Position numbers and translations under genes: made by a program
The notes under the pieces: model-generated
Told to the model about the DNA's origin: nothing
Database searches by the model: none
What the model saw: only the letters and a program-made list of their open reading frames with translations
Shown here: positions 7,000 through 39,521 of the stretch, one piece after another
How positions within the stretch are numbered: position 1 is the stretch's first letter
Layout of the letters: the number at the start of each line of letters is the position of its first letter
Source: Candidatus Thorarchaeota archaeon
GTDB lineage: Archaea > Asgardarchaeota > Thorarchaeia > Thorarchaeales > Thorarchaeaceae
Assembly (NCBI GenBank): GCA_016933575.1
Contig: JAFGAR010000088.1
Span: 32,001 to 96,000, forward strand
DNA: 64,000 nucleotides
Reading direction: 5' to 3'

Positions 7000-7212
7000 G
7001 TGAAAAACTCACTTGAGAATATGACAGGCATAACGAGTTTCCCAGTAGTGGGTCACTTCACCAAGGAACAACTCGAGGCAATTGATAAGGTCTTACAATT
7101 ATTAGACTCTGAGGAGTTCAGAGACTATCATGACCAATTTGGAGTATGTAATGCTCCGGATATTATTGACACGCTCAGACGAAGTGTCCAGCAGGCCCTT
7201 GAGAGAGTCTAG
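7000..7212 (+). CDS. Hypothetical small protein
   Basis: ORF fills an intergenic gap; no recognisable motif. Confidence 0.45.
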   Translation: MKNSLENMTGITSFPVVGHFTKEQLEAIDKVLQLLDSEEFRDYHDQFGVCNAPDIIDTLRRSVQQALERV

Positions 7213-32144: not shown

Positions 32145-32326
32145 TATCCTATGACCTCACTCATTCTTTCTTTTTGATACATGTTCTGGTCCCATAGCTC
32201 TCGCTTCAGGAGGTCTCGGATAGCAATTCGGATTGCCTCTGAACGATTGGGATAGAGACCTTTGTCAACCAGTTGTTGAATATCAATTACAATCCGATCT
32301 GGTAAGTGCACAGCTATGAGACGCAT
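32144..32326 (-). CDS. cdrS: Ribbon-helix-helix regulator, CdrS-like
   Basis: G.YPNRSEAIR.AIRDLL; stop overlaps the ftsZ start, as in the archaeal cdrS-ftsZ2 operon. Confidence 0.85.
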   Translation of the reverse strand: MRLIAVHLPDRIVIDIQQLVDKGLYPNRSEAIRIAIRDLLKRELWDQNMYQKERMSEVIG

Positions 32327-32364
32327 ATCTAGTCCTCTATGATAGCCGGGAAGTATGGGGATAT

Positions 32365-32379
32365 GTATTTGTGTAATAC
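32365..32379. promoter_or_regulatory. Palindrome GTATT-N5-AATAC upstream of cdrS (candidate operator)
   Basis: GTATTTGTGTAATAC about 40 bp upstream of the start codon. Confidence 0.4.
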
Positions 32380-32542
32380 CTTGATTCAGCTGATTGCAAT
32401 TGATTTTTTGTAGTTATTTGCACGAATCAAGTATCTCGATATGCGTGATTTAAAAATACAGAAACTCGAATCTGTTGCTTCTGACCCTAATATATATAGC
32501 TAAAAAAGGATTCAACAATGTTATGGTTAACTGACTCTTCAC

Positions 32543-35500
32543 TTAGCTATATTCAGTATTGGGCTGATCAAACTCTCGTTCTTCATCCCAATCCTCTTCA
32601 AACGCCTCATCAATCTCCTCAACTTCTGAGGACTCCAACTCTTCAATATGCCCAATGATAGCATTTTCAAGTTTCGAGTAGTCTGAGAGAATATGCACCA
32701 ACCTAAGATTCACAAGAGCCTCTGCATCAATCGAGAGATTGTATCTTGAGTTAGAATCAATATCGACAAACTGACCGCATTCTGCTAATAACGCCACATC
32801 GAATATTCCCATATCCTCATTCTCTAATTCAGAAACTCTCTGATTCTCTTTCAACCCATCCAGATGTATCTTCAGATACTTCTTGAAACCACGTTCTTTT
32901 TTCTGTTCATCCACACTGATTCGGAGGATGATATCGCCGCCCACACTTGTTTCCAAGAACTCCTCGCATGTTGAGGGTACTGCAATATTGTCAGAGAAGA
33001 ATGTTGAACGATGAATGAGGGGCTTGAGCACAGAGAGATCGTAGAACTCGCGTTTTCCTTCCTTGTTCTTAACCATCATTTCGTCATAATCGACATCTTT
33101 CAGGGGATCCCACTTGAGGTATGTTCCTTCACGAGTCGCAAAATACTCTCCAGTTCTCTGTGGATATCTGAGAAATCGGATCACCTCGTCGGTGTAGGGA
33201 GTTTCCTTTCTTGCAATCAGCTTAGATCCCTCAAGCAGGTTGATTCTGTAGACTCTCTTCTCGAGATTGATGGTAAGAAGACATGAAACCTCTCTGATGA
33301 CTCCAGCCCATTCAACAGCCTCACGTAACACCCTATCACACTGTGCACGAACGTTCGAGGGAAGTGATGATGGCCTGTACCCATGGAGAGCAAGGAGGGT
33401 TTCAGGCAAAGGTTCTGACAACCGTATCCATCGTACTGGCAGGCTCTTCTCCTTTGGAGGGTTTCCATACTCGAATACTCCAGCAAACGTCCATTCTTTG
33501 CCATCCTCTCCTTCACTCTTTATGTAAAGCACCTGTTGCCGGCTCACTTCGAGAAGGATAATGGGCAGTTCATCCCATCCCTCTCTTGATAGTGCAGTGG
33601 TCGCTTCAGCCTTAGTCTGTTCAGGGTCAATCACACAACGGTACCAACTATAAGGAAGGTATGCACTCATCTGACCTTCAACTAGCCCTCCGTACATAGT
33701 GTTCTTCAAGGATGGAAACAACAACCAGATGGGTCCTCCCTCACTCCCTTCTCGCCATAGCAGTTGTCCGAATCGTTCTATAAATCTCGGTCTACCTGAT
33801 GATGTCATCTTCTTCATCTGCTTCGCCCTCCATTGGAGATTCTTGTGTATTGCCTGAAAGTCGTATCGATATTCAAAGTCGTTATCATCCTCCGGTCTAA
33901 AGCCCATCTGGTGGAATTGCCATCTAGCAACAGCAGACCATAAGTCAATGCAAGATGGTGACTCTACATCTCTGAAGATATTTTCCGCTACCGAAAGTAC
34001 TGCGAGAAAGAGGTTCATCCCATAGATCTCTAGAAGCTCGACATTGTGACTCTGAGCAAGTCTGAGAGATCTCTGATTGTCTAAGTTTAATAGGCTTCCA
34101 AGACTCAGCCGAGTATTTGATAGGAGCCTCCAGAGAAGCCTGGGTTCAGTTCTTCGTAGTAGTGCATCTTTCACTTGAGTCAAAGTATTGAGTAGAATTT
34201 CATCATCACATGATTGATAATCATTGCATTCACAGATGCTGATGATATCTTGATACAATGAAAAGAGCGAGTTGCGCAACGATGTTCTATCCATCAGAAA
34301 GGTTGCAGCATAGAGCAGTCTATGAATCTCTCTTCTTCTCGTATTGGTGGTATCGATATGTGATGATTTCGTAGAATAATTGAGAGGAGGTCTACGAGTG
34401 ATAGTGACTTGCTGTTCATGCTGTTCATCATGCTCTTTGTGAATCCAGCCCCTTGTAATTCGATCAGCACCAACATGGATTCCTTGATGGCATTTTCCAA
34501 GTCTGTTTGGATGAGGTGGCGGTTGCATCAGGTCAAGATGCAACCTACTGGTCAGACTTGGCTGAGTCCTCATACTATCCACAGGATGGTAAGCTGTTTT
34601 CCAATCCTCACTGACATCATCTATCTCAATTTCATTTGTCTGCTCTAGTCTTGGTCTACACAGACTAGGTATCAGACTGGCTGCTCTCTCTTTGATTGTA
34701 TTCAGGCTCTCTCTACCAATCATGTTGCATCGAACCTGAATTGAGGCGCTATGAAACGATCTTCCGTACATGTCCTGTTGTTGGTTCAAAGCTCCAGATT
34801 GTTTACCCACTTCGACATTGAAACTCTGTGTTGCCGCCGCACTGAATTTGCGAGTCCAGCCTCTGAGATGTGGAACACAAATCACAGTTGTCCATGGTTG
34901 GTTATCTATAGGGAGGTCCTGAACGATGACTCGACTCTCATCATATTGGGGGGTTAACCATCCCATCTCTCGCGGAACTGTGGGAAGATTCCAGATTATC
35001 TCATCTACAAGTTGTCTTCGCGGCGAATTATAGTACAGAGGATTCACACACGGTCGCTGGTAGGTCTTGTTCATCTCAGGATGATTCACACCACTATCGA
35101 CCCATATCAATTCAGAGGCAAAGTCCTTCAAGATTTGGAGTAGTGACAATTCAAGTATCTGCAGACTATTTCTACGACCAACAGGTACCATACTCTCAAG
35201 GTCTGGCCAACCATCTACAATGATAATTCGTTCTCCGGATTCTTTGAGGAACATAGACTTGATTCTAGCATGGAAATCCTTCAGTCCTGAAGACCCATTG
35301 GCAAAAATCAGATTATCTGTTTCTTTTTGGAGGTCTATAAAATGTACGCGCTTGAGAACGCCGCTGAGTCTGATATACTCCAACTGACTGATTAGTCCTC
35401 TCTTTCGGAGATTACCAAGTCCGAATCTCATATTGACAAGTTTCTCAGTCGAATAGTCACCAAGAAAATCCATCCAGAAGAGAGATGGACTAGAAGTTAC

Positions 35501-37390
35501 AGTTTCTGCTAATTCAGCGAGATGATTCAACAGGTGCCAGTTTTTAGCCAGCCATGCGGCACTCTTGCCAGAGGTTGTTGGTGAAGAAACAGAGATGTAT
35601 TGAGTAAAGAAGAAACCATCCTCTACTCGTTCTGCAAAAGGGTCTTCATTTTGTGCGTTCTTGGTGGGGACAATGCTTCTCAGGAGATGCTCAGGACCTT
35701 GAGCTGGTGTCATTGTGATAGCGATGCGCGGTACTGTTCCATTAATAGTCGTACACTCAAACTTGAGTGTCTTCCATTGACCACGAAATTCTCCTTCCAT
35801 TAGCTTCGTGGCCAGTTGGTCGATGAGTTGGTCAAAAGCCTTCTTCGTTACTTTAAAGCCCTGGAATGTGTCAAGAGTTACAACTCCCTTCCAGACACGT
35901 TTTGGTGCCAGCGGATTGTTGACAAGGGTATTGAATTCGGTAAGTAGTATTCGCTCGTATTCATCTAACTGGTCAAGATGGGACTTTGGAGGTTTGGAAC
36001 CTAATACTGCATTCCATTCAGAATCCGTAAGACGCTCTTTCCAGGAATGGAGTACTGGAACGTAGACGTCCTTCTTCCTAGTTCGAGGTTTCATTCCATA
36101 GATATTGAAGTTGAATCCTCCTTTCGTCTTTACTTCAAGAATCATAACAGGAGTCCAGATGTACTGCCCTGCACCTCTCAATATTCGTGCAAAAAGTACA
36201 AGATCTATCTTTCCAGCTCCCTGATCCCCAACGACAGGAACCTCCGCCAGATATTGTATTCCAGACGGATTCTGCAGAAATTCATCGCCTGCAAAGACAA
36301 CCTCTCTCAGAGATTTTGGGTGGCAGAACCCTGAGAGGAGCACTCTGTGCCAGTCATTCCCTTCTCTTTGTGTCTTCTTTGTAATCTCTTCGAAGAATTT
36401 TGAGGTTTCTTTACCTGTGATAATTCCATTTCGAATATGACCAAGGACAACCTCACCCCGCTCTCTGACATATTCCTCTTCTGAAGACTCCAGAGTCGTT
36501 TCGACTCTCTTTTTTAGAAATTCAACATCAAGGCCTGTTGGAGGAGTCTCTATTTGCTTGCTAATGCTCTCACTTATTCCACTCTTATCACCGAAATGAG
36601 TCCTGATTTCAAGTACAATCTTGCTAAGTTCTTTATCCGCATCAGGATGGAAGTTCTTTCGACCAACTTTACCTTGTGTGTAGACCCAATCGAGGAATGG
36701 TATGAGCCTATGAATCAGTAACCGGATATATCTATGACACTCGCGGCGAGGAACAGTGTGGATGAAGCATTGCCGACAGAGCTCTATGAGGTGCGCGCGA
36801 ATCATGTCAGCAAAGTCGAGGACGGGAAGGGTCGGATGCGCAAGGAGAACGCGCGGATTTTTTGAATTCCCTCGGTACCCTGCCTTCTGGTGAATTTTTA
36901 CACCCCTCTCCAGTGGTATTCTATCAGCTACACCCTCGGGAATGATATCTACTCGACCATCTCTGTATTTTCTTATCTGGTAGAGGTCTGGGTCTGGAAA
37001 ATAGTATCGAGGGACTAACACATCTCGTAACAGAGAACCCATATAGTTGAGGAGTTCATTAAGTGGCCCAACGGTCCCCTCTCTCCAGTTGTAAACCCGT
37101 TTGAACTCCTTGTTACCGTATCGTTTTGTACTGTACCAGAGCATCTGAAGGTACAATCTTCTCAGAACAGACTCTCTATTCTGTATGGAAGAGAAGTCAT
37201 ATGAGCCCTGTTCTCTGCAAGACGCCCATTCAGTACGCGCAACTTCCCAGTTGCACCTGATCTGTTCATAGAAAACGTTCGTCAGGTCGTTCTTTCTTTT
37301 GTAGGAAAGCCTGACTAAGGCTGATAGTCCTGAGTATATTGCATCTGCCAGAACCTCATTCGGTCGGATTTCTTGGACTTTTCGCCCCAA
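32543..37390 (-). CDS. Large protein (1615 aa) with a RecB/Cas4-like PD-(D/E)XK nuclease domain and a putative P-loop region
   Basis: GNDWH...AEVPV...GKIDLV...ILEVKT...QLDEY, then SSPTTSGKS and RIIIVDG. Confidence 0.75.
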   Translation of the reverse strand: MGRKVQEIRPNEVLADAIYSGLSALVRLSYKRKNDLTNVFYEQIRCNWEVARTEWASCREQGSYDFSSIQNRESVLRRLYLQMLWYSTKRYGNKEFKRVYNWREGTVGPLNELLNYMGSLLRDVLVPRYYFPDPDLYQIRKYRDGRVDIIPEGVADRIPLERGVKIHQKAGYRGNSKNPRVLLAHPTLPVLDFADMIRAHLIELCRQCFIHTVPRRECHRYIRLLIHRLIPFLDWVYTQGKVGRKNFHPDADKELSKIVLEIRTHFGDKSGISESISKQIETPPTGLDVEFLKKRVETTLESSEEEYVRERGEVVLGHIRNGIITGKETSKFFEEITKKTQREGNDWHRVLLSGFCHPKSLREVVFAGDEFLQNPSGIQYLAEVPVVGDQGAGKIDLVLFARILRGAGQYIWTPVMILEVKTKGGFNFNIYGMKPRTRKKDVYVPVLHSWKERLTDSEWNAVLGSKPPKSHLDQLDEYERILLTEFNTLVNNPLAPKRVWKGVVTLDTFQGFKVTKKAFDQLIDQLATKLMEGEFRGQWKTLKFECTTINGTVPRIAITMTPAQGPEHLLRSIVPTKNAQNEDPFAERVEDGFFFTQYISVSSPTTSGKSAAWLAKNWHLLNHLAELAETVTSSPSLFWMDFLGDYSTEKLVNMRFGLGNLRKRGLISQLEYIRLSGVLKRVHFIDLQKETDNLIFANGSSGLKDFHARIKSMFLKESGERIIIVDGWPDLESMVPVGRRNSLQILELSLLQILKDFASELIWVDSGVNHPEMNKTYQRPCVNPLYYNSPRRQLVDEIIWNLPTVPREMGWLTPQYDESRVIVQDLPIDNQPWTTVICVPHLRGWTRKFSAAATQSFNVEVGKQSGALNQQQDMYGRSFHSASIQVRCNMIGRESLNTIKERAASLIPSLCRPRLEQTNEIEIDDVSEDWKTAYHPVDSMRTQPSLTSRLHLDLMQPPPHPNRLGKCHQGIHVGADRITRGWIHKEHDEQHEQQVTITRRPPLNYSTKSSHIDTTNTRRREIHRLLYAATFLMDRTSLRNSLFSLYQDIISICECNDYQSCDDEILLNTLTQVKDALLRRTEPRLLWRLLSNTRLSLGSLLNLDNQRSLRLAQSHNVELLEIYGMNLFLAVLSVAENIFRDVESPSCIDLWSAVARWQFHQMGFRPEDDNDFEYRYDFQAIHKNLQWRAKQMKKMTSSGRPRFIERFGQLLWREGSEGGPIWLLFPSLKNTMYGGLVEGQMSAYLPYSWYRCVIDPEQTKAEATTALSREGWDELPIILLEVSRQQVLYIKSEGEDGKEWTFAGVFEYGNPPKEKSLPVRWIRLSEPLPETLLALHGYRPSSLPSNVRAQCDRVLREAVEWAGVIREVSCLLTINLEKRVYRINLLEGSKLIARKETPYTDEVIRFLRYPQRTGEYFATREGTYLKWDPLKDVDYDEMMVKNKEGKREFYDLSVLKPLIHRSTFFSDNIAVPSTCEEFLETSVGGDIILRISVDEQKKERGFKKYLKIHLDGLKENQRVSELENEDMGIFDVALLAECGQFVDIDSNSRYNLSIDAEALVNLRLVHILSDYSKLENAIIGHIEELESSEVEEIDEAFEEDWDEEREFDQPNTEYS

Positions 37391-37646
37391 GCAGACTCCT
37401 CGGGGGCAATTTCATAATTTTATTTATAAGTAATTCTATCTTAATTGGAATTCTTTTTTTATAATATAAAGTTCTCATAATACCTTTTTTGAAATTTTAA
37501 GCAATAATAGAATTTTTGTTTAATAAGTTTATATAACTTGAATATGATACTAATACGAGTTCAAAAGACTCCTTCAGAACAAGAAAGGGAGTGAACTTGA
37601 CTGGCTCAGAAACGGGTCAGAAGTTTATATAACGTAGGCGAATGCG

Positions 37647-39323
37647 ATGGCTCGGTCCCGTGGAACAACAATCAGTGTAAAGGTCCCTATTAATTGGGAT
37701 ATCATGACGCAAAGGACTCAACAGAGGTTGAGGCAGATTGTTGGAAGGGATACCCGAGTAATCCGAGCGTTCCTTGGAATAATCGAACAACACGAAAACG
37801 AATTGCTAACCGGTCGAAAGAATAACAGAATTCATGATGGAAAATTAGACAAACTCACAATTACAGCGATTAGGGTCAAAGCTGGTAACGGTCAAAGGAT
37901 CACTGTTTCTCACGATATCAAACAGAGGTTCACAAGAATCTCTACGAATGAACTTCAGGAATGCAGGCAGACAGCGGTAGCGCTCTATGAGAGCTACTTG
38001 GCATTGAAAGGAAAAAAAAGATGGAGTCCATCTCGTCCTTCGAAGGTAAACTCAACTAGAAGAATACCACGATGGACGTTCATACAAAGATTCAAGCTCG
38101 AGCAGAATTCATCATCTGTTTCAAGATGGTGGCTCAATCTTCGGGACACTCTTGACTCTGTACCTGAAGGCCGCGTAATTCATGATAGATTATCTATTCC
38201 CCTAAAGGTGTCCCCCTTTCATATCAATCAGTTCCAACGAGGAGAAGTAAAGGCATGTCAAATCTTCACTGATCTTTCAGGGAAGTGGTGGGTAAATTTC
38301 GCTATACGTGTGGCCATTTCAGAGATTCCAAGTACCATTCATCCTCCTGCTGTTCTAGGAATCGACCTTGGTATCGAGAAGGCTGCATGTACGACCTTGA
38401 TTACACCTATGAAGGTACGAGAAACCCGATTCTTCAAACAGAGGAATAAGCTTGAAGTTATCAAGAATTACGACCGACTAGTGGCAGACCTTCAACACGA
38501 GATTTCTACTCGTATCAATACGACTCAGAATGCTGATGGTGTGCTTCAAAAAATAAGGCAGATGCGATATAAACGAGAAAGGGTTGCTCGTGGATATGAC
38601 CGAGTTCTTGTTAGAAACTTACTGGACTATATCGAAGAGTTGTCTGAGAAGTACACACTCTATGTAGCAATTGGTCGCTTGAAGAATATCCGAAATACAG
38701 CTCGAAAAGGTAACTTCAAGGGAAGAGAGTTCAGGGGAATGATTCACTCTTGGGCTTTTGCAAGAATCTCTGAGAGTCTAAAACATGGATTAGCCCAAAA
38801 AGGCTGGTCTGTGGAGGGAAAAGACGCGAGATTCCGTGCAGTTCCTGAAGCTTGGACATCCATCATGTGTTGGAAATGCGGTAGCAAAGGAGTAAGATCC
38901 AAACAGAATTACTTCAATTGTCCATCGTGTGGTCACAAAACAAATGCAGATAGGAATGGAGCAATCAATATCGCCGGACGTCTTATTACGCTCACAAAGT
39001 CATTGCACAATGTGAGAGGACTAGGTAAGTGGGAAACCTCTGTTCAGGCAGGGAAATACTCACGACCGAAAGCCCGAAAGAAGATGCCTTCTCAAGGGAA
39101 GTTCTTACTCTCCGAAGAAGATGAAACATCACATCTTGGAGAGTCCGCGGCTGTTCACTTTGTCCAGATGGACCTTATTAGTTTCAGTGATGGAATTAGT
39201 GAGGGCGATGACGATCCCGCCGTGGAAAATACTGTGGAAATCCTCTCTGTTGCTAGAAGTGATGCTCCGGCGTTAGAACAGGAGAAAGAAGCCAGGTCTT
39301 CAGGAGGGATTCCATCCCAATGA
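37647..39323 (+). CDS. tnpB: TnpB-like RNA-guided endonuclease (IS200/IS605/IS607-associated family) with a rearranged RuvC site
   Basis: RuvC-I LGIDLG (D240), RuvC-II position AIGRL (G343), VPEAWTS (E401), CxxC..CxxC zinc finger, RuvC-III NADRNGAINI (D435). Confidence 0.9.
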   Translation: MARSRGTTISVKVPINWDIMTQRTQQRLRQIVGRDTRVIRAFLGIIEQHENELLTGRKNNRIHDGKLDKLTITAIRVKAGNGQRITVSHDIKQRFTRISTNELQECRQTAVALYESYLALKGKKRWSPSRPSKVNSTRRIPRWTFIQRFKLEQNSSSVSRWWLNLRDTLDSVPEGRVIHDRLSIPLKVSPFHINQFQRGEVKACQIFTDLSGKWWVNFAIRVAISEIPSTIHPPAVLGIDLGIEKAACTTLITPMKVRETRFFKQRNKLEVIKNYDRLVADLQHEISTRINTTQNADGVLQKIRQMRYKRERVARGYDRVLVRNLLDYIEELSEKYTLYVAIGRLKNIRNTARKGNFKGREFRGMIHSWAFARISESLKHGLAQKGWSVEGKDARFRAVPEAWTSIMCWKCGSKGVRSKQNYFNCPSCGHKTNADRNGAINIAGRLITLTKSLHNVRGLGKWETSVQAGKYSRPKARKKMPSQGKFLLSEEDETSHLGESAAVHFVQMDLISFSDGISEGDDDPAVENTVEILSVARSDAPALEQEKEARSSGGIPSQ

Positions 39324-39455
39324 TAGCAGACAAAGCTCTTGCTGATTACATTCTCTGTGGAGTATGTAAGATGGCGACATCAAGTAAGGGAAGGGTAGAA
39401 CACAGAAGTTTCTTTCAGTTGAATTTCACTCAACAAGGGAGATTCAAATTGTATG
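39230..39455 (+). ncRNA. Putative omegaRNA/right-end region of the TnpB locus (boundaries approximate)
   Basis: Several stems overlapping and following the ORF end; a final GTTGA..TCAAC hairpin ends at 39434. Confidence 0.45.
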
Positions 39456-39521
39456 AATACTTGTAATACTCACCTATACTCAGATGAAAGATTCAGGTCG
39501 TATTTGTCCTTGTAATACTCA
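39440..39521. repeat. Two degenerate 33-bp direct repeats with a 49-bp period
   Basis: AGATTCA..T.GTAT...T.CTTGTAATACTCA at 39440 and 39489 (26/33 identical). Confidence 0.6.

Follow-up and report, generated by a model that had tools for sequence, protein, structure and literature searches.

The name aCas1, for 'Asgard Cas1', reportedly goes back to Makarova et al. 2020 in CRISPR J. In the passages that Altae-Tran et al. (2023; PMC10691335) devote to these proteins, they are associated with TnpB, form two groups (Cas1H-Asgard-1 and Cas1H-Asgard-2) and are predicted to act as transposases in a novel family of transposons; repeats often border their loci, and a GTTCACTCA motif, which resembles a CRISPR repeat, follows tnpB beside a hypervariable stretch. 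A Cas1-Cas4 fusion in type V-B is mentioned in the same passages (PMC10691335). Here we describe a locus that we place in this family, found in a stretch of 64,000 nucleotides from a Candidatus Thorarchaeota archaeon (contig JAFGAR010000088.1 of assembly GCA_016933575.1; hereafter the window), where the gene for a giant protein and a divergent tnpB lie together in an insertion between ftsZ and rpl2.

Casposases (e.g. PDB 6opm) use a Cas1-fold catalytic domain to insert a whole mobile element, as may be the case for aCas1. The target duplication of casposons measures 14-15 bp, and their insertions are often found at the 3' ends of tRNAs or genes. The window element resembles them in the length of its target repeat (15-19 nt), and aCas1 elements do so in their sites, which lie at tRNA genes in two loci (L001 and L002) and next to rpl2 in the window. 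However, aCas1 lacks the N-terminal beta domain and the helix-turn-helix (HTH) of casposases, is about four times larger, carries nuclease and RecA-like modules and is partnered by TnpB, and its element has no family B polymerase and no detected terminal inverted repeats. Cas4-Cas1 fusions and Cas4/Cas1/Cas2 complexes (e.g. PDB 7mi4 and 8d3p) combine a Cas1 integrase domain with a RecB-type nuclease (GxxxH, D, ExK, QxxxY), as is predicted for aCas1, and share with it a link to a Cas12-family nuclease, which in the case of aCas1 is TnpB. Unlike those systems, the aCas1 locus has neither Cas2 nor a CRISPR array, and its QxxxY motif lies about 50 residues further from ExK than in Cas4, owing to an inserted beta hairpin. 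Tn7 divides its work among TnsA, TnsB and TnsC, which provide an enzyme that joins strands, a PD-(D/E)XK nuclease that acts on the other strand and a module of NTPase fold. By functional analogy only, aCas1 would combine the same kinds of part, in one polypeptide and with unrelated folds, as the joining enzyme is of the DDE type in Tn7 and Cas1-like in aCas1, and the NTPase module is AAA+ in the former and RecA-like in the latter. The RecA-like domain of aCas1 also differs from RecA-fold proteins that are not catalytic (XRCC2, Elp4/5/6, KaiC-like archaeal proteins) in being embedded in a giant multidomain protein.

Results

A sequence-only reading of the window had reported a protein of 1615 residues, and we confirmed this open reading frame (ORF), which is intact on the minus strand with all its codons open from a TTG start (Table 1). 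The TTG start is supported because the aCas1 homologues open with the same MGRK...PN N-terminus as the window protein; the database copy of 1533 aa was called from a later ATG and starts too late. All 67 clusters of homologues come from Thorarchaeota, 188 aCas1 clusters were obtained in a profile search of 1.84 billion representatives, and every named homologue or locus belongs to a Thorarchaeota or Promethearchaeota metagenome-assembled genome. Given this origin, and given neighbours that encode the archaeal ribosomal proteins L2/L4/L3, FtsZ and Lsm, the window is part of a Thorarchaeota (Asgard) genome. Conservation was assessed in an alignment of 30 and then 53 aCas1 sequences (23-77% identity), and gene neighbours were examined at 53 loci; L-numbers denote the loci compared with the window. 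The whole protein had no match in Pfam, NCBIfam or PADLOC, and the family profiles gave chance matches only against PDB sequences (e.g. a DnaB intein, E 0.06).

In nearly all 53 loci tnpB stands head-to-head with aCas1, on the opposite strand and 160-260 bp away, while the genes around the pair vary. On the strength of this pairing and of GTTCACTCA about 100 nt past tnpB, we identify the window protein as aCas1, the giant partner of TnpB in a Thorarchaeota mobile element. The window family shows the features published for aCas1-TnpB loci, namely an Asgard host, a Cas1-homologous domain, TnpB proteins of two groups, the GTTCACTCA motif and, in some loci, flanking repeats. The architecture, which the sequence-only reading had called unfamiliar, is thus that of a published family, to which the window gene adds one member with nothing essential different. 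Neither the domain map, with its Cas4-like nuclease, its RecA-like module and a possible second Cas1-like domain, nor the empty-site evidence given below is in the passages on aCas1 in PMC10691335.

The distance between ftsZ and rpl2 is about 300 bp in 12 same-genus genomes and 7446 bp in the window. By aligning these empty sites to both borders we set the limits of an insertion which contains aCas1, tnpB and a downstream scaffold only; Cas2, a CRISPR array and any other transposase are absent from the 7.1-kb block. A target repeat of about 15-19 nt stands at both borders, and TGTAATAC, part of the right copy, occurs three times in the window, always at the borders of the insertion. A small conserved ORF between ftsZ and the insertion site (32150-32330, minus strand) belongs to the host flank and not to the element, because all empty sites carry it. 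Two further same-genus genomes have separate insertions in a region that is otherwise collinear, one of about 3.9 kb between rpl4 and rpl2 (L128, G066:C215) and one of about 2.6 kb between a glycyl-radical enzyme gene and rpl3 (L129, G027:C52), neither of which matched the window aCas1 or TnpB at E 1e-10.

Combinations of PD-(D/E)XK and RecA-like domains occur in repair and defence proteins, and each genome carries several diverged aCas1 paralogues, so that the protein might be thought a DNA-repair or defence nuclease-NTPase fusion of the host which stands beside an unrelated TnpB insertion. This reading is disfavoured and we consider it highly improbable, in view of the divergent TnpB neighbour with its fixed spacing in nearly all loci, the joint gain of aCas1 and tnpB as one block, the lack of a PADLOC match and a P-loop lysine that is not conserved. 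That tnpB came to lie beside aCas1 by the chance insertion of an insertion sequence (IS) was considered separately and rejected by the synteny count over the 53 loci.

The partner encoded in the window matched Cas12f in PADLOC (1e-17), the TNB domain in Pfam and TnpB 9nzp in the PDB (8e-8). The TnpB partners of aCas1 form two groups, of about 560 aa (cluster 1) and about 720 aa (cluster 2), and that of the window belongs to the first. All 23 members of its group have Gly at the position of the canonical RuvC-II Glu and share a conserved Glu in the sequence 'VPExWTS' before the zinc finger, whereas in the ~720-aa group the canonical Glu is retained and that of 'VPExWTS' is missing, a pattern that fits a relocated catalytic Glu. 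In six loci (L021, L026, L030, L034, L038 and L040) an ORF of about 220-250 aa without family match lies between the two genes, on the strand of aCas1 and overlapping its start.

Downstream of tnpB, after conserved scaffold-like sequence, the window carries GTTCACTCA in the form TTTCACTCAA (39424-39433). The motif, with an optional C after it, is present in 15 of the 23 cluster-1 loci, at +96 to +106 nt from the tnpB stop in 14 of them and at +149 in L030, and lies in or beside the loop of a two-tier hairpin (39402-39455 on the plus strand of the window, and in the same place from L001 to L055). The variable bases that flank it form base pairs with one another in 12-13 of 15 loci, with sequences that differ by locus; the hairpin of the window requires G-U pairs, and folds of single sequences had modest z-scores (-0.2 to -2.2). 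RNAalifold on a MAFFT alignment found no consensus after tnpB, the variable stems being misaligned, and single-sequence folds were used instead. Directly after the scaffold follow two 33-nt tandem units (39440-39472 and 39489-39521), 79% alike and with a period of 49, each of which opens with AGATTCA and closes with CTTGTAATACTCA, the target sequence of the window insertion; ATACTCAGAT is likewise repeated (39476 and 39515). Their source could be an old junction, the copying of a guide or integration that took place repeatedly.

Such units, with a target copy at the end of each, the fusion of Cas1-like and Cas4-like domains beside a TnpB gene, and the hypervariable stretch next to a CRISPR-repeat-like motif described in the aCas1 passages of PMC10691335 would all suit an integrase of the adaptation type, by which the guide region in the RNA gene of TnpB would be written or renewed, that is, a one-spacer forerunner of the type V adaptation module (Cas1 and Cas4 with a Cas12 ancestor) and not the mover of an element. 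We think this quite improbable, as Cas2 and an array are lacking and the genomes differ by the whole block, not by a spacer alone. Moreover, because the bases on either side of GTTCACTCA pair as a hairpin stem in most loci, the hypervariable stretch need not be a guide and may instead be a covarying RNA stem.

The protein itself was modelled with AlphaFold in two parts, residues 1-870 from the 53-sequence alignment (predicted local distance difference test, pLDDT, 86.8; predicted template modelling score, pTM, 0.85) and residues 851-1600 (pLDDT 79.8). Its domain order is a Cas1-type catalytic domain, RecB/Cas4-type nuclease motifs, a RecA-fold domain with a decaying P-loop, a disordered linker, a weak second Cas1-like helical domain and a beta-rich C-terminus. 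The sequence-only reading had proposed a nuclease-NTPase fusion; the nuclease motifs and the RecA-like domain hold, and the motifs that it listed (GNDWH, the E of AEVPV, GKID, EVKT, QxxxY, SPTTSGKS and IIIVDG) are all where it had placed them, but it missed the Cas1 domain, the TnpB partnership and the mobile context. Of the N-terminal ~330 aa and C-terminal ~750 aa that it left unrecognised, residues 2-256 are Cas1-like and residues 1004-1183 weakly so, and residues 1205-1600 still match nothing, a fold search having returned no recognisable match for them.

The model of the N-terminal region matches the Cas1 alpha-helical catalytic fold, and E73, H185, D192, D195 and R198 are identical in all 53 sequences. 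The sole hhalign match to the 18 canonical Thorarchaeal Cas1 proteins covers the diagnostic Cas1 motif; in the extended alignment, which is of low probability, E73 corresponds to the Cas1 catalytic Glu and L-D192-F-x-D195-M-I-R198 to the Cas1 'LDxxEEFR', and a global hhalign comparison with Cas1 was unsuccessful. E73, H185, D192 and possibly D195 are therefore named here as candidate Cas1-like metal-site residues. The second Cas1-like domain gave no significant hhalign match to the N-terminal domain or to Cas1.

For the nuclease region, G344, H348, D396, K421, Q474 and Y478 are invariant, residue 419 is E or D throughout and E383 is nearly invariant, so that the motif set exceeds what chance would produce. 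In the AlphaFold model these motifs occupy the expected helix-strand-strand-strand-helix elements, and the named ESM-Atlas clusters nearest to the region all belong to the PD-(D/E)XK clan, with scores (0.80-0.87) at the level of a lead. These three kinds of evidence together make the region a predicted nuclease. An hhalign comparison with Thorarchaeal Cas4 was not significant (probability 0.5%), and the fold-search lists for the aCas1 model are dominated by Cas1 and RecA domains, which crowds out nuclease-fold matches.

Residues 589-843 have the RecA-like core fold. The earlier suspicion of an atypical and perhaps inactive Walker A is borne out at the level of the family: the window protein has Ser in place of the first Gly, K609 is K in only about 18 of the 53 sequences (otherwise N, E, V, D, P, R, I or M), and a conserved Walker A GxxxxGK[ST] with a Walker B hhhhD was not found across the set. 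Within the window protein's own clade GK[ST] and D726 are retained, and nucleotide binding may be possible there. In a short subfamily (1420-1440 aa; L052, L054, L059, L060 and L062) the Walker B Asp is lost as well. Directly downstream of aCas1 in these five loci lies a gene for a Rad51/RadA-like ATPase (Pfam Rad51, E 3e-23) with an intact GxxxxGKT, the aCas1 beside it having lost both Walker residues, followed by a gene of about 230 aa without assigned function and then the ~720-aa TnpB.

Elsewhere in the family, the elements of L001 and L002 lie at the 3' end of a tRNA gene (~7084-7128 and ~1153-1212, respectively) with a diverged copy of its 3' half at the far border, and are thus flanked by direct repeats of 46-60 nt; that of L038 is flanked by a 50-nt repeat which includes the GTTCACTCA motif. 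The first two were clear in local alignments against shuffles at 15 loci, and the third was added by a BLAST comparison. L055 and the window were marginally above the shuffled null, the gapped repeat of the window alone not being significant.

Table 1 Features of the aCas1-TnpB insertion and its borders (positions in the window).
Feature	Position	Strand	Basis or detail
aCas1 gene, 1615 aa, TTG start	32543..37390	-	1615 open codons
Cas1-like alpha-helical catalytic domain, residues 2-256, beta insertion 135-182	36623..37387	-	invariant E73, E95, H185, D192, D195, R198
RecB/Cas4-type PD-(D/E)XK nuclease motifs, residues 326-531	35798..36415	-	motif invariance, model order, ESM-Atlas
Single nuclease motifs			G344NDWH348 (~36.36 kb), E383, G393KID396, E419VKTK423, Q474xxxY478 (~35.96 kb)
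RecA/Rad51/DnaB/KaiC-fold domain, residues 589-843	34862..35626	-	Walker A SPTTSGKS, Walker B IIIVD726GW
Walker motifs			SPTTSGKS, residues 603-610 (~35.58 kb); IIIVDGW, residues 722-728 (~35.22 kb)
Linker, residues ~851-1000, low-confidence, probably disordered	34391..34840	-	pLDDT 32-55
Second, weaker Cas1-like helical domain, residues 1004-1183, probably not catalytic	33842..34381	-	
Beta-rich C-terminal region, residues 1205-1600, confidently folded, then acidic tail	32591..33778	-	
TnpB/Cas12f-like partner gene, 558 aa, divergent	37647..39323	+	PADLOC, Pfam, PDB, alignment of 35 partners
Conserved omegaRNA-like scaffold after tnpB	39324..39455	+	ends in motif-bearing hairpin
Insertion, 7.12 kb (aCas1 + tnpB + scaffold), between ftsZ and rpl2	32380..39499	.	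empty-site alignment
Left target copy GTATTTGTGTAATAC	32365..32379	+	empty sites align across it at both borders
Right target copy GTATTTGT-CCT-TGTAATAC	39500..39518	+	empty-site alignment
Third partial target copy	39459-39472		inside 33-nt tandem unit just past scaffold

Discussion

We favour aCas1 as the integrase of its element over a place as IS607-type cargo, and give the integrase role an even chance. The preference rests on the aCas1 genomes without a Resolvase match, on the window-type pairs, none of which (0/23) has a recombinase beside it, and on the source assembly (85.5% complete), in which no Resolvase-family gene was found. Co-occurrence was counted from Resolvase and aCas1 matches in a sample of 61 genomes of the class: 18 had a Resolvase match, 17 with aCas1 and one without, and the remainder comprised 22 genomes with aCas1 and 21 without. 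Thus 22 of the 39 aCas1-positive genomes have no Resolvase match, some of them 92-99% complete and with 6-8 aCas1 matches.

The same counts can be turned the other way, and together with several other results they weigh against an integrase. An IS607-type serine recombinase adjoins aCas1 in L022, L025, L039, L059 and L060, loci which have the second TnpB type or belong to the short subfamily, and 17 of the 18 Resolvase-positive genomes carry aCas1, so the element may have arisen from IS607-type transposition or may still require it. The link to Cas1 is faint at the level of sequence: the profile-profile probability of hhalign is low (4.9%); the Pfam Cas1 model PF01867, which does detect ordinary Cas1 in 18 of the 61 genomes, had no match in the window protein or the 53 members even at E<=5, where the 53 N-terminal halves gave only scattered noise; and a whole-library hidden Markov model (HMM) search, that of the 188 clusters, showed no connection to canonical Cas1. 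The N-terminal beta domain of Cas1 is absent as well, and there is no room for it, since the structural matches begin at residue 2-6 of aCas1 and at about residue 85-116 of Cas1; in the AlphaFold model the insertion at 135-182 is the only beta structure of the Cas1-like region. Convincing terminal inverted repeats were not found in the window insertion, its target repeat has a 4-nt indel between the copies and a third copy besides, and a significant flanking repeat was seen in only 3 of 15 loci tested. The four paralogues in the source assembly are only 24-38% identical and hence show no sign of recent copying.

Several of these results would be accommodated if aCas1 were cargo or an accessory of an IS607-derived TnpB element, the block being moved by a serine recombinase (in cis, in trans or since lost) or by homologous copying triggered by TnpB. 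In L022, L025 and L039 the order is indeed that of IS607, with tnpA (MerR-HTH plus Resolvase, E 1e-20) and tnpB on one strand and an antisense aCas1 in the middle, and in the class sample most Resolvase genes have an aCas1 match no more than a few kb away. The lack of inverted repeats would also suit such an origin, as would GATTCAG, which stands 3 nt inside both borders of the window insertion (32383-32389 and 39490-39496) in direct and not inverted orientation, unlike Cas1- or DDE-type ends. On this reading aCas1 would do some other DNA job for the element, such as mending the breaks made by TnpB, protecting ends or competing with other elements. Nevertheless, IS607 insertion is not known to leave a multi-base target duplication, and 15-19 nt of the target are repeated at the borders of the window insertion; nor do the window-type loci, the source genome or the 21 other aCas1-positive genomes without a Resolvase match supply the recombinase. 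The strict conservation of the two catalytic sites over deep divergence also speaks against cargo, since it argues for a function that the element needs. We therefore treat cargo as possible and on the unlikely side.

If aCas1 is the integrase, it would insert the element in a manner that can be modelled on known systems. As in casposases and Cas1-Cas2, the Cas1 domain would link the 3' ends of the element to staggered positions of the target, which would produce the 15-19-nt repeat; the nuclease fused to it would process the second strand or the ends by cutting or trimming, a task that falls to Cas4 in the case of Cas1 and to TnsA in Tn7. The RecA-like domain may serve assembly or DNA binding without obligatory ATP hydrolysis, and TnpB, together with its RNA, would cleave sites that lack the element, so that the element is kept or copied again.

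A bolder proposal, to which we allow only a slim chance, is that aCas1 is a single-chain Cas1 pseudo-dimer, with an active N-terminal and a degenerate C-terminal Cas1 domain and a Cas4-like trimmer, which installs target-derived DNA beside the TnpB scaffold, with or instead of moving the element. Were this true, the two tandem units that end in a target copy would be its trace, and aCas1 would be a living intermediate between transposon-encoded TnpB and adaptive type V CRISPR.

The copy in the window offers a clean test case for aCas1 as the integrase, as 12 empty sites define its borders, it contains no further transposase and both candidate active sites are intact. The residues mapped for mutants have predicted roles in joining (E73, H185 and D192), cutting (D396, E419 and K421) and nucleotide use (K609 and D726). 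If aCas1 is the integrase, its elements would form, next to casposons, a second class of transposons driven by Cas1, one that occurs in the archaea most closely related to eukaryotes and is coupled to the ancestor of Cas12.

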